From Kiloniellaceae bacterium (lineage in GTDB: Bacteria; Pseudomonadota; Alphaproteobacteria; Kiloniellales; J153), in assembly GCA_021776095.1 (NCBI GenBank), contig JAJFGO010000044.1, positions 39,080-103,079 of the forward strand: 64,000 bases of DNA, in the 5' to 3' direction. Shown here piece by piece: positions 5,578 to 49,907 of the stretch. The notes beneath the pieces are model-generated. The model was not told where the DNA came from. It saw only the letters and a program-made list of their open reading frames with translations, and did not search any database. The stretch's first letter is position 1. The number at the start of each line of letters is the position of its first letter. The position numbers and the translations under genes were made by a program.

Positions 5578-6933
5578 ATGACAGCGAATTTCGGCGCCAG
5601 CCTCCTGCTTACCGATCTGTACCAGTTGAACATGATGCAGGCCTATTTGGAGCGCGGCCTGAACGCGCCCGCGGTGTTCGAATTCTTTGTGCGCAAACTG
5701 CCGGAACGGCGCGGTTTCCTGATGGCGGCCGGGCTGGAACAGGCCTTGGCGTTTCTGGAGAACCTTCATTTCTCCGAGGAGGATCTGGATTGGTTGGGCC
5801 GCACGGGCCGCTTCTCCACGGACTTCGTCGACGACCTCGCCGCGCTTCGTTTCACCGGCGACGTCCACGCCATGGCCGAGGGCACAGTGTTCTTCCCGGA
5901 TCAACCGATCCTACGCGTCACCGCACCCCTGCCAGTCGCCCAACTGGTCGAGACCCGCCTGATCAACCTGCTCCATTTCGAAACGCTCATCGCCTCCAAG
6001 GCGGCGCGCATGGTCCTGGCCGCGCCGGGCAAGACCCTTATCGACTTTGGCTTGCGTCGGGCCCATGGCGCGGAGGCGGGCCTGCTGGCCGCGCGCGCCG
6101 CGACCATCGCCGGCTTCGCGGGTTCCGCCACCATGTTGGCACAACGTGCTTTTGGGGTTCCGATCTTCGGCACCATGGCCCATTCCTTCATCCAGGCGCA
6201 CGACGACGAATCGGCGGCCTTCGAGAACTTTGCCCGATCGCGCCCCGATAACGTCGTGCTGCTGATCGACACCTACGATACCGAGGCAGGCGCGCGCAAA
6301 GTCGTGGCCCTGGCGCCAAAGCTGCGCGACGAGGGCATCGAGATACGCGGCGTGCGGCTCGACAGCGGCGATTTGGGCGCCCACGCCTTCAAGGTCCGCC
6401 GCATACTCGATGACGGCGACCTCCCACAGGTCCAGATATTCGCCAGCGGCGGAATTGACGAAGATATCTTGCTGAGCCTTGGCGCGCGCGGCGCGCCGAT
6501 CGACGGCTACGGAATCGGCACCGCGCTGACCACGTCCTGCGACGCGGCGGCGCTAGACTGTGCCTACAAGCTGCAGGAGTACGCCGGAGTCGCGCGGCGC
6601 AAGCGCTCAGAAGGCAAGGCGACCTGGCCCGGGCGCAAACAGGTTTATCGGCAATACGGCACGGATGGCGTCATGGCCGGCGACGTGCTGACCCTGGAAG
6701 ACGACCGGCGGGACGGCGAAGCCCTGATCGTTACGGTCATGCGCGCCGGGGTCCGCCTTGGTCCCGCGCCCGGCCTGGTGGACATGCGCGCGGGTGCGGC
6801 CCGGCAACTCGCGCGCCTGCCGGCCCCAATGTGCGCCCTAAAGATGGGCACGGATTATCCAGTGGAGATTTCGCCCGCACTGCGCGCGCTGGCCAGACAG
6901 TGCGACCGGCGCATCTCCGCGCCCGGCCGCTAG
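5578..6933 (+). CDS. pncB: nicotinate phosphoribosyltransferase
   Basis: LLTDLYQLNMMQAYL...FEFFVRKLP...GTMAHSFIQAH...DTYDT...GVRLDSGDL is the NAPRTase family signature. Confidence 0.9.
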   Translation: MTANFGASLLLTDLYQLNMMQAYLERGLNAPAVFEFFVRKLPERRGFLMAAGLEQALAFLENLHFSEEDLDWLGRTGRFSTDFVDDLAALRFTGDVHAMAEGTVFFPDQPILRVTAPLPVAQLVETRLINLLHFETLIASKAARMVLAAPGKTLIDFGLRRAHGAEAGLLAARAATIAGFAGSATMLAQRAFGVPIFGTMAHSFIQAHDDESAAFENFARSRPDNVVLLIDTYDTEAGARKVVALAPKLRDEGIEIRGVRLDSGDLGAHAFKVRRILDDGDLPQVQIFASGGIDEDILLSLGARGAPIDGYGIGTALTTSCDAAALDCAYKLQEYAGVARRKRSEGKATWPGRKQVYRQYGTDGVMAGDVLTLEDDRRDGEALIVTVMRAGVRLGPAPGLVDMRAGAARQLARLPAPMCALKMGTDYPVEISPALRALARQCDRRISAPGR

Positions 6934-6985
6934 CGCACGATACGATTCGGTCCAATCGGACCAGACCCCTAAGCTAACAACAGCC

Positions 6986-7186
6986 CTAGCCGTGCAGTTG
7001 CACCGGCGGACAAGGCACAGTGCCGTAGGAGCAGAAAACACAGCAGTCGCCCGCCTTGGGTCGCAACAGGACCTGGCAGCCGGCGCAGTCGTGGAAATAC
7101 AGACAGGCGTCCAGCGGCATGTCCATCTCCTGCCGGTGGCCGCAGTCGGGGCAGGTCAGGACCGATCGGGCGATCACCGCGCTCAT
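6986..7186 (-). CDS. GDCCVxC domain-containing small metal-binding protein (66 aa)
   Basis: MSAVIARSVLTCPDCGHRQEMDMPLDACLYFHDCAGCQVLLRPKAGDCCVFCSYGTVPCPP has an N-terminal CxxC and a C-terminal GDCCVFC motif. The start at 7186 overlaps the stop of the upstream merF-like gene (ATGA). The track ORF 6986..7339 extension was rejected. Confidence 0.75.
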   Translation of the reverse strand: MSAVIARSVLTCPDCGHRQEMDMPLDACLYFHDCAGCQVLLRPKAGDCCVFCSYGTVPCPPVQLHG

Positions 7187-7392
7187 TGCGGCCCGCGCCG
7201 GGCGCGCGCCGCAAAGGCATAGACGGTCAATCCGGCGAAACCGGCCAGCGCCGGGAAGAGAACATAGTCGAGCCATCCGACCAAAGCCGAAAGCCCGAGC
7301 GCGGCCAAGAGGACGACCAGGACCGGCGTGAATCAGCAAAGCGCGACGATCGCCGTGCCGATCAAGCCCGTGCCTAGGAGTCTATTGCTCAT
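7183..7392 (-). CDS. merF: MerF-like mercury/heavy-metal transporter with in-frame TGA at the vicinal-cysteine motif (candidate selenoprotein, 69 aa)
   Basis: From the ATG at 7392 (RBS AAGGAC 7 nt upstream): MSNRLLGTGLIGTAIVALC-[TGA at 7335..7333]-FTPVLVVLLAALGLSALVGWLDYVLFPALAGFAGLTVYAFAARARRGPQ. This is collinear with MerF (..IIGTTLVALCCFTPVLVILLGVVGLSALTGYLDYVLLPALAIFIGLTIYA..). The TGA sits exactly at the second Cys of the CC pair. The gene is absent from the ORF track because of the TGA. Confidence 0.6.
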
Positions 7393-7413
7393 GCGCACGT
7401 CCTTACGGATCGG

Positions 7414-9819
7414 TTACGCGCTGACCGGTTGGTCCGCGGGCGGTGAGGCAATGTCTTTCGCCCGCAAGGGAATATGGCACCTCACCTCGGTCCCTTCGCC
7501 CGGCGTGGACTGCAGATCGACCTGCCCACCGTGCAATTCGATCAAGCTTTTGACCAGCGACAATCCAAGTCCCGCCCCGGACGGCACGCTTTTACCGGGC
7601 TGCGCCGCGCCACGTTCGAACTTGTCGAAGACGCGATCCATGTCGTCCTCGATTATGCCAACCCCACTGTCTGAGACGATCAGTTGTATTTCTTCCGCCG
7701 TGCGTTCCGCCGTGACGCTGACCGTGCCGCCATCCGGCGTAAATTTGAAAGCATTGGATAGCAGGTTGAACAAGGCCTGCTTCAAGCGCCGCCCGTCGGC
7801 GATGACCGAGCCGATGCTGTCGGGGCATTCGACCTGCAGGGTGATGTTCTGGCTGCGTGCCCGTTCGTGGCCCAGGGTTTGGATGCTGTCCAGAATCTCT
7901 TTCACATCCACGGGGTCGAGTTCGAGCTCCATGTAACCAGCCTCGATGGTAGCCAGATCGAGAATGTCGTTGATCAAGGAGATCAGGCGCTGCGAGGCCT
8001 CGACGATGCCGCGGCTGTATTCCAATTGTCGTTCGTTCAAGGCGCCGAAGAACTGGTTCTCCAAAATCTCGGCGAAGCCGACAATGGCGTTAAGCGGCGT
8101 GCGCAGCTCGTAGGAAATGTTGGCGACGAACTCCGATTTCAAACGATCCGCTGTTTCCAGGGCGTCGTTGCGGTCGCGCAGGGCCCGCTCGACGCGGCTG
8201 GAATCCGTCACGTCCAAGAAGGTGAAGAGCGAAGCGCCGTCGGGCAGGGGCACTTGGGCCCAATCGATCACCGATCCGTCGGGCCGAATACGCCGGCCGC
8301 CACGCGCTTCCGCCTCGGTCGCGCGGGCCGCGCGCGTTTCGACAAAGCCGTCCCAAGCTTCGGCGGAAACGTCAAAATAATGCCGGCCTTGCGCCAGCAA
8401 CTGGCGCACGTGCGGCTTTTGCTCCAGGGCCTCGCGCGGCAGGTTCCAGATCCGCGAATAGGCCGGGTTGAAAAGTTTCAAGCGGCCGTCGGCGCCGAAC
8501 ACCGCGACACCCTCGTAGAGGTTATCGAGGGTTTCGCGCTGAACCTCGATCAAGGTGTTGTAGGACCGCTCCAACGTCAGGCGATCGGTCACGTCCTCGT
8601 AGGTGACCAGCACGCCGCCGAAGGGATGCGGGCTGGCCAGGCTGCGCAGGGTCGTGCCGTCCGGCAAGTGGAGCAATTCCTCTTTGGTGTCGATCATATT
8701 CTGCAAGCCGCGAATCCAATCGCGCTTGTATTCCGGGAAATTGGGATGCTCGGGCAGGCGGCGCTGTTCGCGCAGGGTCTCCAGAATGTCGCCCAGCTCC
8801 GGCGCCGTGCTGAGGAAAGATTCCTCCAGTTGCCATAGGCGCGCGTAAGCTGTGTTGAAAAATCTGAGCCGTAGATTCTTGCTAAAGATCGCGATCGCGC
8901 TGCCCAAGTTTTCCAGAACGTCGTCGTGCGCGTCGACGTGGCGCTTGAGCTCGGCCTCAAGGTCCTCGGCATCGGTGCGGTCGATTGCATGGCCGACCAA
9001 AGTGCCGTCGTCCATGGGGCGCTCGTCGATTGCCAGCATGCGCCGCGCGCCGCCGACCACCACATGATGGGACTCGCCGGCCGGTGCCTTGGATTCGACG
9101 GCTCGGCTCGCCAGCGCGCGGGCGGCGTCGCTCTTGGCCTTGCCCAATAGCTCGATGGCCTGGCCGAAGACGGCTGCGGGGTCCGCATCGACCGCCTGGG
9201 CATAGGCCCGGTTGCAATAAACCACGCTCAAGGCTGCATCGCGCCGCCACACCGGCAGGGGCAAGCTGTCCAGAACGCCGGCCAGGGCATCGCGCTCCGC
9301 TTTCGCTTCGGCCAGGGCCGCCTCGCTCGCGCTCGTGTCTTGGAACCAGACGAAATCGACCGCCGCCTCGCCGTCAGTCACCCGCGTGCGGCCGCCGGTA
9401 ACATCGAAGGTGCGGGCGCCGTCGAGGGTCCGCAGCCGGTGCGTGAAACCTTTGCCGCGGGCCAGCAAGGCCTCAAGCGCGACCGAGAGTTGGCGCGACG
9501 CGGCCTCCTCGAACGCACCCAGCACGCCCGACAGGGCCACGGTCGATTTTCCTTCGCCGAGATCGAGCACCTCGATCAAGCGCGGCGAGGCCTGAATCGT
9601 GCCGTCCACATGGGAGAAGGCGAGGCAGCCGAGCGGCGCCGCGGAAAGGGCCGACTCGGCCGATTCGATACGCCCGCCGGCCAGGGCCAAGGCGCCCCGC
9701 GCCGCACGCCAACGGGCCCGGTATCGCAAGGCCTGGATCGCGCAGAGAACGCACAGGCCACTCGCGGCCCAAACGCCGTATTGCAACAGAAGGTCGATTG
9801 CGATTGCGCCCGGCGGCAT
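7414..9819 (-). CDS. membrane-anchored multi-PAS sensor histidine kinase
   Basis: Has an N-terminal TM segment, repeated PAS-like segments, a HisKA box (EFVANISYELRTPLNAIVGFAEIL) and HATPase_c motifs (NLLSNAFKFT, DSGVGI, GAGLGLSLVKSLIELHGG). There is no receiver domain. Confidence 0.85.
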   Translation of the reverse strand: MPPGAIAIDLLLQYGVWAASGLCVLCAIQALRYRARWRAARGALALAGGRIESAESALSAAPLGCLAFSHVDGTIQASPRLIEVLDLGEGKSTVALSGVLGAFEEAASRQLSVALEALLARGKGFTHRLRTLDGARTFDVTGGRTRVTDGEAAVDFVWFQDTSASEAALAEAKAERDALAGVLDSLPLPVWRRDAALSVVYCNRAYAQAVDADPAAVFGQAIELLGKAKSDAARALASRAVESKAPAGESHHVVVGGARRMLAIDERPMDDGTLVGHAIDRTDAEDLEAELKRHVDAHDDVLENLGSAIAIFSKNLRLRFFNTAYARLWQLEESFLSTAPELGDILETLREQRRLPEHPNFPEYKRDWIRGLQNMIDTKEELLHLPDGTTLRSLASPHPFGGVLVTYEDVTDRLTLERSYNTLIEVQRETLDNLYEGVAVFGADGRLKLFNPAYSRIWNLPREALEQKPHVRQLLAQGRHYFDVSAEAWDGFVETRAARATEAEARGGRRIRPDGSVIDWAQVPLPDGASLFTFLDVTDSSRVERALRDRNDALETADRLKSEFVANISYELRTPLNAIVGFAEILENQFFGALNERQLEYSRGIVEASQRLISLINDILDLATIEAGYMELELDPVDVKEILDSIQTLGHERARSQNITLQVECPDSIGSVIADGRRLKQALFNLLSNAFKFTPDGGTVSVTAERTAEEIQLIVSDSGVGIIEDDMDRVFDKFERGAAQPGKSVPSGAGLGLSLVKSLIELHGGQVDLQSTPGEGTEVRCHIPLRAKDIASPPADQPVSA

Positions 9820-42192: not shown

Positions 42193-43149
42193 ATGAGCCT
42201 AGCCGTCGCGATCCAGATGGATCCGGTTGAAACCATCGACATCGATGCCGACAGCACCTTCGCCCTGGCCATGGAGGCCAAGCGGCGCGGCCACGGTCTA
42301 TACCACTATCTGACGCAAGACCTATCGTTGCGCGGCGGCCGGGTGGTCGCGCGCGCGCGCCCCTTCGTGCCCCGGCACGACCCGGCCAAGCCGGGCGAGT
42401 TGGGCGCGCCGGTATCGATCGATCTGGCCGCCTTGGATGTGGTGCTGATGCGTCAGGACCCGCCTTTCGACATGGCCTACATCACCGCGACCCACCTCTT
42501 GGAGCACGTTCATCCCGCGACCCTGGTGGTCAACGATCCGGTCCAGGTGCGCAACGCGCCGGAAAAGCTCTTCGTCACCCATTTTCCCGAGTTGATGCCG
42601 CCAACCCTGATCTCCAGCGATCGGCTCGAGATCGAGGACTTCCGGAAAGAACATAAGGACATCATCGTCAAGCCACTGTTCGGTAACGGTGGCGCGGGCG
42701 TCTTTCACATCGCGCCCGAGGACGAAAACATCAACGCGCTCTTGGAGCTTTTTACCGGACTCTATCGCGAGCCTATCGTAATTCAGCGCTATTTGCCGGA
42801 GATCCGCCAAGGCGACAAGCGCATCATCCTGGTCGACGGCAAGGCCGCCGGCGCGGTCATGCGGGTGCCCCCGGACGGCGAGGCGCGGGCCAATCTGCAC
42901 GCCGGCGCGCGCGCCGAGAAGACGACGCTCAATACCCGCGACCGGGAGATTTGCGACGCGATCGGCCCGACCTTGAAAGAACGGGGCCTGATCTTCGTCG
43001 GCATCGACATCATCGGCGGCTACATGACCGAGATCAACGTGACCTCGCCGACCGGCATCCAAGAAATCGACCGCTTCGACGGCGTCTCCCTGGAAAGTCA
43101 GATCTGGGATGCGATCGAGGCTCACCAGGCCGCCGTGCACCGGGCTTGA
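42193..43149 (+). CDS. gshB: glutathione synthetase
   Basis: MSLAVAIQMDPVETIDIDADSTFALAMEAKRRGH...VLMRQDPPFDM...IVKPLFGNGGAGVF...GDKRIILVDG...YMTEINVTSPTG is full GshB (ATP-grasp). Confidence 0.95.
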   Translation: MSLAVAIQMDPVETIDIDADSTFALAMEAKRRGHGLYHYLTQDLSLRGGRVVARARPFVPRHDPAKPGELGAPVSIDLAALDVVLMRQDPPFDMAYITATHLLEHVHPATLVVNDPVQVRNAPEKLFVTHFPELMPPTLISSDRLEIEDFRKEHKDIIVKPLFGNGGAGVFHIAPEDENINALLELFTGLYREPIVIQRYLPEIRQGDKRIILVDGKAAGAVMRVPPDGEARANLHAGARAEKTTLNTRDREICDAIGPTLKERGLIFVGIDIIGGYMTEINVTSPTGIQEIDRFDGVSLESQIWDAIEAHQAAVHRA

Positions 43150-43171
43150 GACCTTACGTGTCCGGAGAAGT

Positions 43172-44032
43172 CTAGGCGGCGCGTTCGGACCGGGGCGGTG
43201 GCGCGGCGGTCACGCCCAAGGCCTCGTCCCACCAGGATATCACCCGTCGATCCAGGGTTCGGGTCGCCAAATTAACGTCGCGGGCGTGAATATCCTTCAA
43301 CAGGCTTTTGACCGCGCGGACCGTCAGGGGATCGATACGGGCCAGGCGGAACAAGGTCGGCCGATAGGTTCCGGTCAACATGGCCGCGGCGAGCGTCTTG
43401 CGGTCGAACCACATGCGCACCGCCCAGCGCCGGGCCAGGCGCCTGAGGCCGGCGACCCAGCGCTCGCTTTCCACGATCGCGCAAAAGCTGTCCGCCAAGT
43501 CGCGTGCTTGGGGCGGCAGATGGGCCGGATCGTTGTCCCACCCGAAAGCGGAAACTGCGGCCGTGCAGAACTCCGGCGAGACCTCGTTCAAGGCACTGAC
43601 ATCTTCGAGCAGCCGCTGCTCGACCAATCCGCGCAGGCCCCGGTTGCCGAACAGGGGATCGCGGAACAAGCCATGCAGGCCGGCGATCGCGCTACGGCGA
43701 TCGCCGCGCGCGAGGGACGCCACGATGGAGCGGGTCAGATTTTCGACGGCGCGTGAAACCTCCTGCGCGCGCGCAGGAGAGGTCCGCCGTGGCCGACGCA
43801 CGCTTTGCTGAACCGTCGTATTGCGGCTGGGCCGGCGCGGCGCGATACGGGGCACCGGGCCGGAATCCATAGCATCGCAGAACCGGTGCGCCCGGCGATA
43901 GGCGGCGCACAGATCGTCGGCCCGGCCCGGTTGGGTTTCAGGATCGATTTCGGCCAGACGATCGGCATAGGCGCGGGCGATCCCGATCCGATCGCGAGTT
44001 CGCTTGATACCCAGGAGGTGCCAGGTCGACAT
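43172..44032 (-). CDS. hypothetical protein with degenerate J-domain-like N-terminus
   Basis: MSTWHLLGIKRTRDRIGIARAYADRLAEIDPE... resembles the first helices of a DnaJ J-domain but has no HPD tripeptide (EIDPET instead). The rest has no recognisable motif. The ATG at 44032 is preferred over the GTG at 44047. Confidence 0.5.
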   Translation of the reverse strand: MSTWHLLGIKRTRDRIGIARAYADRLAEIDPETQPGRADDLCAAYRRAHRFCDAMDSGPVPRIAPRRPSRNTTVQQSVRRPRRTSPARAQEVSRAVENLTRSIVASLARGDRRSAIAGLHGLFRDPLFGNRGLRGLVEQRLLEDVSALNEVSPEFCTAAVSAFGWDNDPAHLPPQARDLADSFCAIVESERWVAGLRRLARRWAVRMWFDRKTLAAAMLTGTYRPTLFRLARIDPLTVRAVKSLLKDIHARDVNLATRTLDRRVISWWDEALGVTAAPPPRSERAA

Positions 44033-44252
44033 GATCCCTAACGACACAGTTTGTCCCGTTTTTCAGCTAGTAGTACGTGGTCCCACAATCGAAACAGAAC
44101 TTGGTTGATGGCCGGTTAACCACGGGTGACCGGACCCGCAGATACTGGAGAAAGGAGGGCGCGCCGGCCGCAGTGCCTTGTTCGCGCAGACGGGGGGCCC
44201 TTACCTTGGGCCCTGAAACAATCCGCCGCCGTATGCGTGAGAGAGGCTGGCC

Positions 44253-44408
44253 ATGAAGACCGTCTATACCGAGGACTATCTGCGGATCGGCGCGCGCATA
44301 GCCGCGCTTGGTCTGCCCACCCTCTTCGTCATGGAAGGCGGCTATGCCGTTGACGCGCTCGGCGTGAACACCGTAAATGTCCTGAGTGGCTTCGAAGCGG
44401 AGGCTTGA
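44253..44408 (+). pseudogene. C-terminal remnant of a histone-deacetylase/acetylpolyamine-amidohydrolase family gene (51 codons)
   Basis: MKTVYTEDYLRIGARIAALGLPTLFVMEGGYAVDALGVNTVNVLSGFEAEA matches only the extreme C-terminus (..V.EGGY..) of about 300-340-aa HDAC-family enzymes. An in-frame TGA lies 4 codons upstream of the ATG, and no N-terminal part is present. Confidence 0.45.
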
Positions 44409-44411
44409 GCC

Positions 44412-44951
44412 ATGATCCAGCCGCGTCGCGGCAGGAACCTATGCCTGACCCTTGCCGCACTCCTGCTTAGCGCTCTGTCGGTTCGCTCCGCGCGGGCGAC
44501 GGATGACCCGGGCATCGCCTTCGTCAACGTCAATGTCCTGCCCATGGACGCCGAGACGGTCCTGCGGGCGCACACGGTGGTGGTCCGTGACGGCGCGATC
44601 GCCGCCATGGGCCCGGCTGGCAGCATCGCGCTGACACCGGACATGAGGCTAATCGACGGCGGCGGCACCGCCTACCTCATGCCCGGCTTGGCCGACATGC
44701 ATGTCCACCTGCGGCGCAGCGGGGCGTCCTGGTTGCCCCTGTTCCTGGCCAACGGCGTGACCACGGTCCTGAACATGAGCGGCACGCCCAACCATCTGGC
44801 CTGGCGCGACCAAGTGGCCATCCGATTGACCCACGATATTGCGATGTATTTCAGTTACCGTCGCGAGCGTCGCCAGCCTGCTGCCCGTGCCTCCGCCTCT
44901 GTGCAGAACCATCGCTCGCCTTTGGAAATGTTGATGGTCGTTGGATTGTAA
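44412..44951 (+). pseudogene. 5'-truncated-product remnant of a metal-dependent amidohydrolase gene (only about the first 140 codons are family-like)
   Basis: Has a signal peptide, then ...VVRDGAIAAMGP...LIDGGGTAYLMPGLADMHVHL...LFLANGVTTVLNMSGTPNHLAWRDQV (the amidohydrolase N-terminal metal-binding HxH region). After about nt 44825 the frame continues as unrelated sequence and overlaps the 3' end of the opposite-strand gene. Full-length relatives are about 400+ aa. Confidence 0.55.
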
Positions 44952-45163
44952 TATTTCCCTCCGCGCACGTGATAGATGCGCTCGCCAGTACTAACGCTGA
45001 TGTTGCCTTTTATGGTGCAGGTACCCGGTAAGAGCTCCCTCCCCCTCCCGTCGAATACGAACCAAGCCACAAGAACCACCGGTGCCACCAGCAGCCAAGA
45101 GGGGAACGGCTTTCGCGACCGCCGCCGGTTTTGCCATTTTGAAAAGCCCACAGGGATCTCCAT
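44855..45163 (-). CDS. sunset-domain / ExoI-like small membrane-anchored protein (102 aa)
   Basis: MEIPVGFSKWQNRRRSRKPFPSWLLVAPVVLVAWFVF (TM anchor), then CTIKGNISVSTGERIYHVRGGKYYNPTTINISKGERWFCTEAEARAAGWRRS, the C.IKGNIS..GERIYH.PG...Y..T.I....GERWFC.E.EA..AGWR.S pattern. G+C is lower than the surroundings. The track start at 45349 was rejected. Confidence 0.65.
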   Translation of the reverse strand: MEIPVGFSKWQNRRRSRKPFPSWLLVAPVVLVAWFVFDGRGRELLPGTCTIKGNISVSTGERIYHVRGGKYYNPTTINISKGERWFCTEAEARAAGWRRSRR

Positions 45164-45224
45164 ACGCTCGCATAAAGTGAGAAGGCTATGGAAACCACTA
45201 TCCTTTCGCTCTTTGATTGACGTT

Positions 45225-45358
45225 CGGTGAATCGGTGGCTCCGCCCACTGAAGTGCCCGGTGGGCGGGCATTGCCGGCTGATGATCGGCCCGCCGGGCGC
45301 CGGCAAGTCCATGCTGGCGCGGCATCCCACCGCCGCTTTCGCCCGCCACGGCGCTGGA
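45225..45358 (+). pseudogene. internal comM/yifB-like gene fragment (Walker A region only)
   Basis: ctgatgatcggcccgccgggcgccggcaagtccatgctggcgc...ggcatcccaccgccgctttcgcccgcc aligns with comM nt about 46100-46200 (ctgatggtgggcccgcccggcgccggcaagtccatgctggcgcagcgcctgcccggcatcctgccgccgctgtcgcccgcc), with an 11-nt deletion and scattered mismatches. It translates as ..GGHCRLMIGPPGAGKSMLA.. versus ..GGHNLLMVGPPGAGKSMLA... Confidence 0.7.
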
Positions 45359-45462
45359 TTGCGCGCCGCCGCGGCCTTAGACTTGCCTGCCTAAAATGGT
45401 ATGTGATGGACGACTGGCGCGAGCGGCCGGCCGCGCCGCCATTTACAGCGCCGGGGGGCGGG

Positions 45463-46995
45463 ATGGTCGCGCGGGTCAATACGGTCGCGTTCCAGGGGGT
45501 CGAGGTCGTCGACGTCGACGCCCAGGTCCAAATGGCCAGCGGCATGCCCGCCTTCACCGTGGTCGGCCTGCCCGACAAGGCGGTCGGCGAAAGCCGCGAG
45601 CGGGTCCGCGCCGCTCTGAACGCCCTGGGCTTGGCTCTGCCGCCCAAGCGCATCACCGTGAACCTGGCCCCGGCCGACCTTCTGAAAGAGGGCAGCCATT
45701 TCGATCTGCCGATCGCGCTCGGCCTCTTGGTCGCCATGGGCGTGCTGCCGGGCGACGAGATCGGCGGTTATTGCGCGCTGGGCGAATTGGCGCTCGACGG
45801 GCGGATCAGCGGCGTGGCCGGGGTTCTGCCGGCGGCCTTGCATGCCCTGGCCCACGAGCGCGGCCTCATTTGCCCGGCACGCCAGGGCGGCGAGGCCGCC
45901 TGGGCCAACGGCATCGAGGTGCTGGCGCCGGACTCCCTGTTGGCGCTGATCAATCACTTCAAGGGCACCCAGGTGCTCACGTCCCCCACCCCGGCCTTGG
46001 CAGACCCGCCGGGCGCGGGCGCGGCTGGGCTCGACCTGAAGGACATCAAGGGCCAGGAAACCGCCAAGCGCGCGCTCGAAGTTGCCGCGGCCGGCGGCCA
46101 CAATCTCCTGATGGTGGGCCCGCCCGGCGCCGGCAAGTCCATGCTGGCGCAGCGCCTGCCCGGCATCCTGCCGCCGCTGTCGCCCGCCGAGGCCCTGGAA
46201 GTCAGCATGATCCATTCGGTCGCCGGGCAACTGGAGGGCGGGCAACTGTTGCGGGAGCGCCCGTTCCGCGACCCGCACCATTCGGCCTCCCTGGCCGCTC
46301 TGGCCGGCGGCGGCCAGCGCGCCCGGCCGGGGGAAATCTCGCTCGCCCATCTGGGGGTGCTGTTCCTGGACGAGTTGCCGGAGTTTACGCGCCCGACCCT
46401 GGAAGCCCTGCGCCAGCCCATGGAGACCGGGCGGATTGCCATCGCACGCGCCAACATGCACGTGACCTATCCGTCGCGGGTGCAACTGGTCGCCGCCATG
46501 AACCCCTGCCGCTGCGGCCACCTGGACGACCCGGCCCTGGCCTGCTCGCGCGCGCCCAAATGCGCGCTCGACTATCAGTCCAAAATTTCCGGGCCGCTGT
46601 TCGACCGGATCGATCTTCATGTGGAGGTCGCGGCGGTCAGCCCGGCCGATTTGTCCCTGCCGCCGCCGGCAGAAGGTTCCAACGAGATCGCCCCGCGCGT
46701 CGCCATTGCGCGCGAGCGCCAGACCGCGCGCTTCCGCGACCTGCCGGCCGAGCGCCGCCCGCGCACCAACGCCGAGGCCGACGGCACCCTACTGGAAGAG
46801 ATCGCGGCGCCCGACGATGCGGGACGCGCCCTGCTGAACCAGGCGGCGGAGCGCATGAAGCTGACCGCGCGCGGCTATCACCGGGTGTTGCGCGTGGCAC
46901 GCACCCTGGCCGACCTGGAGGGCGCGGAGACCGTGCGCCGCACCCAAATCGCCGAAGCCCTAACCTATCGCCGCGTCGCGCCGGGGCGGGGCTAG
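45463..46995 (+). CDS. comM: YifB/ComM family Mg-chelatase-like AAA+ ATPase
   Basis: MVARVNTVAFQGVEVVDVDAQVQMASGMPAFTVVGLPDKAVGESRERV (Lon-like N-domain), Walker A GPPGAGKSM, ...GVLFLDELPEF..., ...HRVLRVARTLADLEG. The start ATG at 45463 follows a G-rich RBS. The upstream extension to 45217 was rejected. Confidence 0.9.
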   Translation: MVARVNTVAFQGVEVVDVDAQVQMASGMPAFTVVGLPDKAVGESRERVRAALNALGLALPPKRITVNLAPADLLKEGSHFDLPIALGLLVAMGVLPGDEIGGYCALGELALDGRISGVAGVLPAALHALAHERGLICPARQGGEAAWANGIEVLAPDSLLALINHFKGTQVLTSPTPALADPPGAGAAGLDLKDIKGQETAKRALEVAAAGGHNLLMVGPPGAGKSMLAQRLPGILPPLSPAEALEVSMIHSVAGQLEGGQLLRERPFRDPHHSASLAALAGGGQRARPGEISLAHLGVLFLDELPEFTRPTLEALRQPMETGRIAIARANMHVTYPSRVQLVAAMNPCRCGHLDDPALACSRAPKCALDYQSKISGPLFDRIDLHVEVAAVSPADLSLPPPAEGSNEIAPRVAIARERQTARFRDLPAERRPRTNAEADGTLLEEIAAPDDAGRALLNQAAERMKLTARGYHRVLRVARTLADLEGAETVRRTQIAEALTYRRVAPGRG

Positions 46996-47005
46996 ACGCC
47001 CGCCC

Positions 47006-47866
47006 TCACCCTCTGCCGGGCCCGCCAGGGCCGCCGCGCCGGGCGATGAGGCCCTTGGCGGGATCGTAGGCGCGGATGGCGGCGCCGAGGAACACGGCGG
47101 TGCAGGCGGCGACGACCCCGAGCGCGGTCCAATTGACCTGGCCGTAGAGCGCGAAGCGAATCAACTCCACCGCGTAGGTGAAAGGATTGAAGGCGCAGAT
47201 GTCGTGCAGCAGGGGGCTGGTCTCCGCCAGACGCCACAGGGGATAGAGCGCCGACGAGGCGAAGAACATGGGGAATATGACGAAGTTCATGATGCCGGCG
47301 AAGTTTTCGAGCTGCTTGATCGCCGAGGACAACAACATGCCGAGCGCGCCCAGCATCATGCCCGAGATAATCAACGCCGGCAGCACGGCGAAATAACCGA
47401 GCGGCGGCGGCCGCACGTCCCAGAACCAGGCGATGGCGAAAAACACATAGACCTGAAGCAGCGACACGGCGACCCCGGCCAAAAGCTTGGCGGTCAAAAG
47501 AAACCAGCGCGGGAAGGGGCTGATCAAAAGCGTGCGCATACTACCCATTTCCCGGTCGTAGACCATGGACAGGGACGACTGCATGCCGTTGAAAAGCTGA
47601 ACCATCGCGACCAGGCCGGGCGCGATGTAAACCTCGTAGAGCACATAGGTCTCGTAGGGCGGCGCGATCGACACGCCGAGCACCGAGCGGAATCCGGCGG
47701 CGAAGATAAACAGCCAAACCAGCGGCCGCACCAAGGCGGCGACGAAGCGTTCGCGCTGATGCAGAAAGCGCAAGCCTTCGCGCCACACGATGCCGCGCAG
47801 GCACACCAGATAGGCGGCGGGGCGCGGCGGCGAGGGTGCGTCGATCGCGGCCGTTGGCGCGCTCAT
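47006..47866 (-). CDS. ABC-2 type transporter permease
   Basis: 286 aa from the ATG at 47866, with six hydrophobic segments and the ABC-2 pattern (REMGSMRTLLISP...). ATGA overlap with the upstream ATPase gene. The long track ORF (to 48556) is a frame artefact. Confidence 0.85.
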   Translation of the reverse strand: MSAPTAAIDAPSPPRPAAYLVCLRGIVWREGLRFLHQRERFVAALVRPLVWLFIFAAGFRSVLGVSIAPPYETYVLYEVYIAPGLVAMVQLFNGMQSSLSMVYDREMGSMRTLLISPFPRWFLLTAKLLAGVAVSLLQVYVFFAIAWFWDVRPPPLGYFAVLPALIISGMMLGALGMLLSSAIKQLENFAGIMNFVIFPMFFASSALYPLWRLAETSPLLHDICAFNPFTYAVELIRFALYGQVNWTALGVVAACTAVFLGAAIRAYDPAKGLIARRGGPGGPGRG

Positions 47867-48639
47867 GCCTGGGTCGCCTCGCCGGTCGCAACCGTGGCGC
47901 ACGAATCGCGGGTCAGTTTTAGGAAGGCCTCGCGGATGTCGCCGGCCCCGGCCGCCGCAATTACTTCGTCGCGCGCACCTTGCGCCAGCACGCGGCCCAG
48001 GTGCAGCACCACCACCTGGGACGATGGCAAGACTTCGTCGATCAGGTGGGTCGCCCAAAGCACTGCCAGGCCCTGGTCGCGGCATAGGTGCTGGACGTGA
48101 TCCATGATGGCTTGGCGCGAGTCCATGTCGAGCCCGGCCGTGGGTTCGTCGAGCAAGAGCAAACGCGGCCGGTGCAAAAGCGCGCGGGCGATTTCGACCC
48201 GGCGCATCTGCCCGCCCGACAGCTTGCGCACCTTGTCGCCGGCCCGCTCCACCAGGCCGAGACGGGTCAATTCCTCCTCTGCGCGACGCTTGGCTTGGCC
48301 GGCCGGCAGACCGTGCAACGCCCCGTGATAGATCAGATTCTGCAGGACCGAAAGATCGAGATCGAGGGTGCGTTGCTGAAACACCACGCCCAGGTGCCGA
48401 AGTGCGGGACGCGGCTGGCACCGCACGTCGTGGCCGAAGACCCGAATGTGGCCGCTGGCGTTGTCGTAAAGCCGGGTGATGAGGGAAAACAGAGTGGTCT
48501 TGCCGGCGCCGTTCAAGCCGAGCAAAACGCAATGCTGGGATGGCGCGATCGCGCAAGTCACCTGATCGAGCGCCTGGCGCGCGCCAAAGGCGTGTGACAG
48601 CGAATCAATTTCCAGCGCCGGAATGGCCGTGGCGGTCAT
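47863..48639 (-). CDS. ABC transporter ATP-binding protein (ABC-2 / DrrA-NodI type)
   Basis: Walker A GLNGAGKTT, signature LSGGQMRRVEIARAL, Walker B LLLLDEPTAGLD. Confidence 0.9.
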   Translation of the reverse strand: MTATAIPALEIDSLSHAFGARQALDQVTCAIAPSQHCVLLGLNGAGKTTLFSLITRLYDNASGHIRVFGHDVRCQPRPALRHLGVVFQQRTLDLDLSVLQNLIYHGALHGLPAGQAKRRAEEELTRLGLVERAGDKVRKLSGGQMRRVEIARALLHRPRLLLLDEPTAGLDMDSRQAIMDHVQHLCRDQGLAVLWATHLIDEVLPSSQVVVLHLGRVLAQGARDEVIAAAGAGDIREAFLKLTRDSCATVATGEATQA

Positions 48640-48741
48640 GAAACCAGATTAGGCACGCGCCAATCCGGCCTGCAAGCTGACTAACCCGGCCCAGGGCGGC
48701 GGAATCGCGGCGCCGCCGTTCCCTTAGACCCGGTTAGCGTC

Positions 48742-49287
48742 TCAGCGCGGCTTGATGGTCTCGAAGGCCGCGCGGGTCGCGTCCTCGAACGGGCTCCAGC
48801 ACTCGCGGCTGACCTTGGCGGAGAGGTTGAGCAACTTCGCCATCTCATCCGCATAGTGCTGCATGGCCTGCTGCGCGAAGTCGCTGTGCGCCTGCATCGC
48901 CTCTTGCATGTTCGTGCACTGGCTCAGGGCCTCTTGGTGTTCCAGGTCCCGGTTCAGGCGCGCGTTGCCGAACTCCATCACCTCGCGCTGCAAGCTGGCC
49001 ATGCTGTCCAGCATGGTCCGGTTCATCTTGGCCAGGGCGTCCAACGCTTCGGTGTTGGTCATGGACTCCCAAACGTCGAAAGCTTGCGCCTCGGTCTCGG
49101 TCGATTTCGGGGCTTTCGGCGTTTCCGGCTTCTCGCTGGTTTCAGCCGTTTCGGAGGCGAGTCGCGGACGCGCCTCCACCACTGTCGCCTTAGGGGTTTT
49201 CAGTTGTGCCGCCTGGGGTGCGGTCTCGCCGATGTCTTCGGGTGAAGCTTCGGGAATCGCTTGGATTTTCTGGGATTGCCGTGCCAT
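48742..49287 (-). CDS. phasin family (PHA-granule-associated) protein with acidic/Pro-rich N-terminal extension
   Basis: The C-terminal about 110 aa (..ALDALAKMNRTMLDSMASLQREVMEFGNARLNRDLEHQEALSQCTNMQEAMQAHSDFAQQAMQHYADEMAKLLNLSAKVS..) fit the alphaproteobacterial phasin helix pattern. Confidence 0.65.
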   Translation of the reverse strand: MARQSQKIQAIPEASPEDIGETAPQAAQLKTPKATVVEARPRLASETAETSEKPETPKAPKSTETEAQAFDVWESMTNTEALDALAKMNRTMLDSMASLQREVMEFGNARLNRDLEHQEALSQCTNMQEAMQAHSDFAQQAMQHYADEMAKLLNLSAKVSRECWSPFEDATRAAFETIKPR

Positions 49288-49387
49288 GTCAGAGTCTCCG
49301 CCAAAGAGGTCTCGCGGCCGTTACCGCCGTCAAACGTGACCCTGAAGAGCACCCTTTGCCGGGCGGCGCGTGGCCAGCCTTATTAGA

Positions 49388-49416
49388 TATTTAGAAATCG
49401 TTAACCATAAATGCAA
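49388..49416 (-). promoter_or_regulatory. candidate sigma70-type promoter for the phasin gene
   Basis: On the minus strand: TTGCAT (49416-49411), a 17-nt spacer, then TAAATA (49393-49388). It lies in the only strongly AT-rich patch of the intergenic region, about 100 nt upstream of the ATG at 49287. Confidence 0.35.
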
Positions 49417-49538
49417 TAGGGTTTTTTGCCGCCATTCAGGCGCGCAGTCCTGCGATGTGCACAAAGTCACAATCCGGCCGGCGCAGTGGCAGATTTCCGC
49501 GATTTAGTTGTCCACAGTGGGCGGACTCCGCCGGGATG

Positions 49539-49907
49539 TTATTTATCGGCCGGCTTGATCATGCGGCCCAGGTTTTTGCCGGCGAAGATGTGCAGATGGA
49601 AATGCGGAACTTCTTGATGGGCGTCGCGCCCGGTGTTCGCCAAAATCCGATAGCCGTTTGCGTCCAGGCCGGCGTCGCGCGCGATCTTGCCGGCAGCGCG
49701 CACCAAAGCGGCGACTTCGCCGTCGCTCGCCTTTTGCGAAAAGTCGTCGTAGGAGATATAGGCGCCCTTGGGAATCACCAAGATGTGGGTCGGGGTTTGC
49801 GGGTTGATATCGTTGAACGCCAGGACGTGTTCATCCTCGTAAACCTTGTCGCAGGGAATTTCGCCGCGAATGATCTTGGCGAAGATGTTGCCGGAGTCGT
49901 AAGCCAT
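49539..49907 (-). CDS. HIT (histidine triad) family protein
   Basis: ...FNDINPQTPTHILVIPK...GRDAHQEVPHFHLHIFAG contains the HxHxHxx histidine triad. Confidence 0.9.
   Translation of the reverse strand: MAYDSGNIFAKIIRGEIPCDKVYEDEHVLAFNDINPQTPTHILVIPKGAYISYDDFSQKASDGEVAALVRAAGKIARDAGLDANGYRILANTGRDAHQEVPHFHLHIFAGKNLGRMIKPADK

Follow-up and report, generated by a model that had tools for sequence, protein, structure and literature searches.

The window, a 64-kb stretch of high-G+C alphaproteobacterial DNA from a Kiloniellaceae bacterium, harbours a mosaic tract of 1.4 kb upstream of comM (yifB). Remnants of an HDAC-family gene and of an amidohydrolase gene, an intact sunset-domain gene and a comM-like fragment were recognized in the tract, which is preceded by gshB (42193-43149; NF003573, E = 5.5e-130) and a conserved gene of 291 aa (Table 1). 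comM itself is complete and encodes a YifB/ComM Mg-chelatase-like AAA ATPase, scoring 516.4 bits against TIGR00368 (cutoff 362.4) over profile positions 3-499 of 499, and the protein collection contains a protein 100% identical to it. Comparison contigs and loci are labelled L001 to L098. The comM identity to the window gene is 91% in L081, the closest relative, and 90% in L082, and the genes in the place of the 291-aa gene in both are 61% identical to it at the protein level. Between this gene and comM, L081 carries a 578-aa gene, an intact 343-aa HDAC-family gene and an MHYT histidine kinase gene, and L082 carries PhoX and a 441-aa gene. The interval in L005 holds genes for a PotD-like binding protein, an intact HDAC-family protein of 344 aa and a fatty-acid hydroxylase-like protein (the last read from its translation alone). 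In more distant relatives (L016, L027, L055 and L057), gshB lies within 100-175 bp of comM. Taking into account the differing content among relatives and the close spacing in the distant ones, the gshB-comM interval is hypervariable. Scans of the region and the window found no tRNA, Rfam family, sigma-70-like promoter or terminator.

Table 1. Features of the mosaic tract and its borders, in window coordinates
Feature	Position	Strand	Basis
Conserved hypothetical gene, 291 aa	43172-44047	-	Left edge of variable gshB-comM interval
HDAC-family (acetylpolyamine-amidohydrolase-like) remnant, 51 codons	44253-44408	+	Alignment to intact 343/344-aa genes of L081 and L005
Amidohydrolase 5' fragment, ~135 of 450-600 codons	44412-44819	+	Homologue alignments, tblastn
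Junction filler, amidohydrolase stump to sunset module	44820-44851	.	Homology to other sunset modules begins only at ~44842-44856
Sunset-domain gene, intact, 102 aa, N-terminal hydrophobic segment	44855-45163	-	NF051437, homologues
Sunset upstream region ending in X arm (45241-45283), candidate element-side half-site	45164-45283	+	76-86% nucleotide identity to L083-L091 and L095
Truncated comM 3' arm (B'), codons 216-246, 11-nt deletion, from Walker-A GPPGAGKS coding sequence	45284-45358	+	66/75 to comM
Native comM upstream region, joined directly to truncated B' arm	45359-45462	+	Motif GCCTAAAATGGTATG
comM/yifB, intact	45463-46995	+	TIGR00368

The first-pass annotation had described a fragment of ~135 bp homologous to the Walker-A region of comM, and had named the significance of this similarity as a point to be checked. 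The similarity is real, with a blastn E value of 1.5e-17 against comM inside the window, and a chance resemblance was rejected on this value. A repeat search paired 45258-45323 with 46088-46153 at 80% and 45317-45358 with 46158-46199 at 83%. The offsets of the two blocks, 830 and 841, correspond to the 11-nucleotide (nt) deletion that had been annotated in the fragment. A gapped alignment of 45241-45358 gave 97 identities in 117 positions, including an exact repeat of 25 nt (45296-45320 and 46126-46150). We then considered the two sides of position 45283, the boundary described below, separately. To its right, identity to resident comM 46114-46199 is 88%, with 34 matches in the first 37 nt, and the translation of this arm matches PF01078 (E = 2e-5). 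To its left, 31 of the 43 positions of 45241-45283 match comM, a level also reached in 79 of 2997 windows of 46 nt drawn at random from this genome. Only 45284-45358 is thus convincingly derived from comM. The motif GCCTAAAATGGTATG, found just after the truncated arm, is conserved in the comM upstream regions of L081 and L082, and blastn homology of the window to its relatives resumes at 45452. No chimerism between the 5' and 3' parts of the resident comM was detected, both halves being similarly distant from relatives. Beyond the fragment, the 64-kb window contains no other piece of comM, including its 5' half, and consequently no such half joined to an element-side arm of the P' type described below.

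We examined where the sequence to the left of the boundary occurs in other genomes. Positions 44842-45288, comprising the sunset gene, its upstream region and an arm that we designate X, form a module related to L083-L091 and L095 at 76-86% nucleotide identity. Homology of the module runs to 45265-45288, and the contexts diverge to the right of X. The contigs L083-L086, each of the four from a different sample, have AACG/TTGTTTTTCATTGAC to the right of X (a slash marks the junction), a P'-type arm, and next to it, in divergent transcription, a gene for a 506-aa large serine recombinase (LSR) in which Resolvase, Recombinase and Zn_ribbon_recom domains are recognized. In the window and in L091, X runs into GATG/ATCGGCCCGCCGGGCGCCG, and from the Walker-A motif on the sequence is that of comM. 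Another, unrelated sequence is present at this position in L087-L090.

In L083, comM is cut after codon 215-218 (...CTGCTCATG/TTATTTCTTATTGAC), and homology to the window comM ends at 46113. L001, with an uninterrupted comM, shares 96.6% identity with L083 over the site, so that the two represent an occupied and an empty site. A search with the L083 recombinase led to L094 and L092/L093. On the 4.3-Mb contig L094, rsmI, yraN, a BON gene and gshB are followed further on by a comM 5' half (247 aa), and this directly by genes for a 516-aa LSR, an OLD-family nuclease, a small resolvase and a Prim-Pol protein. In L092/L093, where the element is inverted, a 497-aa LSR gene adjoins a comM 3' half (293 aa). 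The first of these halves is homologous to the window comM up to nt 651 and the second from nt 638 on, which corresponds to 46100-46113. Recombinase-bearing elements have thus split comM at the same nucleotide, CTGATG/GTGGGC, in three independent cases (L083, L094 and L092/L093). The element-side arms form a related set: TTATTTCTTATTGAC, TTGTTTTTCATTGAC, TCATAACTTATTAAC and the reverse complement of ATCAATAGAAAACAA. The fragment in the window switches from module to comM homology at 45280-45283 (GATG), equivalent to comM 46110-46113. As this switch point is the crossover nucleotide of the three LSR insertions, the fragment can be understood as an attR-type junction, in which the X half-site is joined to the comM 3' arm. 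The ~135-bp fragment was therefore correctly recognized as comM-related, but would be an element/comM junction rather than a stray internal copy of comM. An unoccupied attB core is predicted in the window comM at ~46100-46118 (ACAATCTCCTGATG/GTGGG).

These features raise the question of whether a mobile element has to be invoked at all. Templated repair or a small ectopic duplication might have placed a copy of a short piece of the resident comM ~0.8 kb upstream of the gene while deletions were shaping the interval, and this copy would then have decayed. When the fragment was ranked against 83 comM genes, the resident gene was indeed its best match (score 94, with 91 for L082), and the neighbourhood has clearly undergone several deletions. 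On the other hand, a local copy does not predict that genuine similarity to comM should begin, on the left, at the very nucleotide where LSR crossover was mapped in three other genomes, or that the sequence beyond this limit should be an element module found beside an LSR gene elsewhere. Moreover, L091 carries the same X/B' junction in another genome, where B' breaks off at codon 238 and the fusion point lies 2 nt ahead of the gshB start codon. The arm variant ATCGGCCCGCCGGGC is common to the window and L091, in contrast to GTGGGCCCGCCCGGC in the resident comM. The shared variant hints at a common origin of the cassette and the arm, and we regard local copying as very unlikely.

Our results instead point to the tract 44852-45358 as the surviving right end of an LSR element that inserted into the Walker-A coding site of comM, an interpretation to which we assign a probability of roughly 0.78. 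The earlier suggestion that the tract is the scar of a comM-targeting element is supported by the element module, consisting of the sunset gene and X, and by its boundary at the nucleotide split by three elements. No recombinase remnant and no comM 5' piece are present in the window, and only the right end of the element would therefore survive.

The arrangement could also have been generated by an assembly or binning chimera, since the window apparently comes from a contig assembled from metagenome data. Assemblers could be misled by the exact repeat of 25 nt common to the fragment and comM, and the two contigs available for comparison both end within it. These contigs, from Logan assemblies of two different runs (SRR15505512 and SRR15505517), match window positions 42811-46139 and 44037-45319 at 100%. 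One of them (L097) is 100% identical through all the junctions between gshB and comM nt 677, and that from the second run (L098) agrees. Flanking synteny with relatives is also normal. An artefact was rejected on the basis of this agreement between independent assemblies, and a chimera is extremely unlikely.

The sunset gene was next considered. Its product matches NF051437 with an E value of 1.1e-10 (41.4 bits, cutoff 27) over residues 51-100, and its homologues carry PF27542. G+C content is 0.545-0.57 over 44800-45199 and 0.69-0.775 in comM, in agreement with the initial description of an oppositely oriented 102-aa gene in a segment of lower G+C. Close homologues with 75-87% protein identity are present in L083-L091 and L095/L096, and on many short metagenome contigs in varied contexts. 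The gene is intact in all copies, with dN/dS values of 0.27-0.41, indicating purifying selection and a gene that is functional now or was so recently. It is the predicted terminal cargo gene of the element. A metagenome scan with the sunset protein detected distant homologues alone (44-78% identical), none of them near comM or an LSR gene, and the association of sunset gene, LSR and comM is therefore limited to the close subfamily. The X side is absent from the contig of the sunset protein P0128, and a plasmid search matched only generic parts of sunset and comM sequences. No match to the X arm emerged from pattern scans of viral and metagenome contigs. The X arm of L095 is degenerate, with an IS110-family transposase gene beyond it. 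The close sunset homologues of L095 (595-2258) and L096 (66-1213) adjoin IS110-family and IS6/IS240-family transposase genes. A 164-codon open reading frame at 44855-45349 on the minus strand extends the sunset frame upstream, antisense through the X and comM arms, and one of the same length has been called as protein P0126 in L091. This is probably an over-long gene call and not a real N-terminal extension.

The organization of L083 suggested a further possibility. In the direction of comM, the comM 5' half is joined to a first arm (P'1), followed by a 142-aa low-G+C gene, a second att-like junction (CGGCGG-N10-CTGATG/TTGAAGTCGATTAACCC, P'2), the sunset gene on the minus strand, X joined to a third arm (P'3), and the LSR gene with its cargo. 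The sunset unit is ~0.5 kb in length and is without a recombinase. The array looks like a tandem accretion of att-bounded units at one site, as judged from these junctions. The sunset unit may thus be a mini-cassette of ~0.5 kb, moved in trans and stacked by comM-targeting LSRs, with X/B' acting as a pseudo-attB decoy or landing pad. If so, an X/comM' junction upstream of an intact comM would capture incoming elements and spare comM. The three att-like junctions of the L083 array and the location of an LSR element exactly at X agree with such a cassette. L089 and L091 share the P'2 junction together with ~22 nt to its left and then diverge, so that their left flanks differ, and the varied contexts of the close sunset homologues on short contigs point in the same direction. 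However, the left (P') end in the window is missing or reduced to a 10-nt motif, and an occupied/empty pair for the cassette alone was not found. In addition, attR-type sites do not normally serve as LSR integration substrates, and the likeness of X to the comM B arm is marginal. Independent movement of the cassette is accordingly judged unlikely, though less so than local copying.

As for the LSR elements themselves, no relatives of the recombinase were found in IMG/VR, and the best matches of the L083 LSR in the phage collection were lambdoid YbcK-like proteins with ~32% identity. A small resolvase gene (~230 aa) lies 8-10 kb from the LSR gene in both of the other elements (L092:20278-20973 and L094:18370-19062). 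The L094 element also carries an OLD-family nuclease gene, an SRAP-domain gene and a Prim-Pol/AAA_25 gene. Roles in defence or replication are possible for the cargo of the L092 and L094 elements. In L083, the region 6227-8298 immediately ahead of the interrupted comM contains a Fic-family gene between two overlapping gshB pieces (residues 220-249 and 249-316), which suggests a separate insertion with partial duplication of gshB.

The left part of the mosaic tract had been annotated as a C-terminal remnant of an HDAC-family gene followed by an amidohydrolase gene that loses family similarity after about codon 140. A truncated piece of 51 codons exists for the former, but it is not purely C-terminal. 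The native start MKTVYTED, the first 8 codons, is retained and fused in frame to the last 43 codons (YLRIGARIAALGLPTLFVMEGGYAV...), with ~290 codons deleted internally relative to the genes in the same interval of L081 and L005. The remnant is 84% identical to the C-terminus of the L081 gene at the same locus (E = 2.7e-22). Its match to PF00850 is weak (E = 0.099, 12.4 bits, cutoff 27.9) and is confined to profile positions 253-295 of 298, so that the catalytic domain of the family is not encoded. For the amidohydrolase, homologues of 450-600 aa align to query residues ~10-137 alone, nearly all matches stopping at 135-137. Similarity ends at residue 132-137 (~44814-44822), tblastn with full-length homologues stops at 44816-44819, and NCBIfam profiles are matched in their N-terminal quarter alone. 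A complete metal-dependent hydrolase barrel, characteristic of the amidohydrolase superfamily, is not encoded; the 179-codon frame runs on to 44951 through unrelated read-through sequence antisense to the sunset gene. The missing halves of both genes were found nowhere in the window by tblastn. The internal deletion and the truncation may represent further deletions in the same hypervariable interval, which extends from gshB and the 291-aa gene to comM. The 38 nt from the amidohydrolase break to the sunset stop codon (44814-44851) include CGATTGACCC. This sequence resembles, by eye, the P' arm of the element (TCGATTAACCC/CATTGACCC in L083 and L089) and may be the last trace of the left end of the cassette.

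A history of the locus can be proposed from these observations. The element side, made up of the sunset gene, its upstream region and the X half-site, would end at 45280-45283, where it was joined to comM codons 216-246. The recombinase gene, the remaining cargo and the attL partner, conceived as comM codons 1-215 joined to a TTNTTTNTNATTGAC-type arm, would have been lost from the locus. The comM 3' arm would later have been truncated at codon 246 (45358), so that it now borders on the native promoter and the complete gene. Such a join would be expected at the novel junction of a tandem duplication whose segment began ahead of comM, took in its 5' half and the element, and ended shortly inside the 3' half. 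In both the window and L091 the end of a segment meets the start of a segment, and this leads to the duplication reading. gshB is located upstream of comM in most relatives, and the duplicated segment of L091 would then start upstream of gshB. Alternatively, incoming homologous DNA may have replaced the resident sequence in the last step, with illegitimate joining at one end. comM would be restored if the element was excised from the right-hand copy or if homologous replacement took place, and the left copy would then have been lost by deletion; the order of the deletions is likewise a proposal. A second copy of comM, which the first-pass annotation had raised as an alternative, may account for the truncated 3' arm in front of an intact comM.

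Several points weigh against the proposal that the tract is the end of an LSR element. No recombinase, P' arm or comM 5' remnant is present in the 64 kb, and the element is deduced from homology to other genomes alone. When the L083 LSR and its neighbours were used in tblastn searches against the window, no match was obtained, and what the window contains is a remnant and not a functional LSR element. A simple complete element, with a comM 5' half, LSR gene, sunset gene, X and a full comM 3' half in this order, was not recovered. In L083 the sunset unit, situated between two att-like junctions, does not form the distal end of the LSR element. The L083 LSR shares only 62% identity with its counterpart in L092 and 53% with that in L094, and a sunset gene was not seen within the 10-kb flanks of either of these two. 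Recombination between attP and attB by these LSRs, as well as the att sites themselves, are predictions from sequence. Finally, the duplication and replacement histories are both compatible with the data, and the former is drawn from the geometry of the two junctions in the window and L091.

Some variation was also observed around comM outside the mosaic tract. On its downstream side, ~2.5 kb (46996-49539) precede the next conserved gene in the window. This region contains a minus-strand pair of open reading frames read from translation alone as an ABC-2-type permease (47006 onward) and an ATPase (47863-48639), and a gene of 181 aa at 48742-49287. The conserved gene starts ~10 nt after comM in L002, and the downstream side of comM is therefore variable too. 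In L081 (11534-12440), a second comM piece (codons 458-509, 55% aa identity) is found ~0.7 kb downstream of the intact comM, with a LysE-family gene between them. It looks like the remnant of a different element targeting the comM 3' end. Extra comM fragments near comM were also found in L007:8891-9148 (codons 1-85), L021:6643-6753 (codons 107-143), L047:15913-18549 (codons 226-408, scrambled) and L063:13277-13514 (codons 427-505), and comM-adjacent gene fragments therefore recur across Alphaproteobacteria.

Taken alone, the locus is of modest interest, as the decayed scar of an event of known type, and its value is comparative. A puzzling mosaic is explained as the remnant of a site-specific integration. 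The comparison provides a candidate attachment site, at the nucleotide level, in the P-loop coding region of comM, apparently used by a family of LSR islands in free-living Alphaproteobacteria. The recombinases and their sites of ~40-50 bp could be integration tools. Tandem arrays and restored comM genes bear on how bacteria tolerate or reverse insertions into a gene for DNA repair and transformation. In terms of annotation, short P-loop "pseudogenes" beside comM can be att junctions.

Composite arrays of staphylococcal cassette chromosome (SCC) type, SCCmec and pseudo-SCC, are built at rlmH (orfX) by the Ccr large serine recombinases. As in these arrays, the units of L083 are accreted in tandem at one att site, some of them without a recombinase, and are bounded by att-like junctions. 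The target gene and the host phylum are different, and whereas SCC spares the coding function of its target, the insertion here splits comM at codon 215/216. The mobility of the recombinase-less unit is putative in the present case. With regard to the target gene, an LSR integrates into a magnesium chelatase gene of the comM/yifB family in the sr1WO group of Wolbachia prophage WO, and in rearranged cases portions of the gene stay attached to prophage fragments (Bordenstein & Bordenstein 2022, PMC9203015). Our search of the literature found no link of "comM" with "large serine recombinase" outside the Wolbachia context. The elements described here resemble sr1WO in their alphaproteobacterial hosts, LSR integrase, Mg-chelatase-like ATPase target and the gene halves flanking the element. 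Unlike WO phages, they carry an OLD-family nuclease, Prim-Pol, DUF4411, a Fic protein and a sunset gene, and their hosts are free-living Kiloniellales/Rhodospirillales-like bacteria; the likeness is at the level of the gene, the exact site and the recombinase sequence aside. In Acinetobacter baumannii, comM is a hotspot for AbaR/Tn6022-type Tn7-like islands and defence islands, and restoration of the interrupted gene by recombination has been discussed (PMC11472951). In both cases comM is a recurrent insertion hotspot for islands with defence or resistance cargo. The AbaR islands, however, insert by Tn7-like transposition (PMC11472951) and not by site-specific recombination with a serine recombinase, so that here too the likeness is one of target gene, the insertion site aside.

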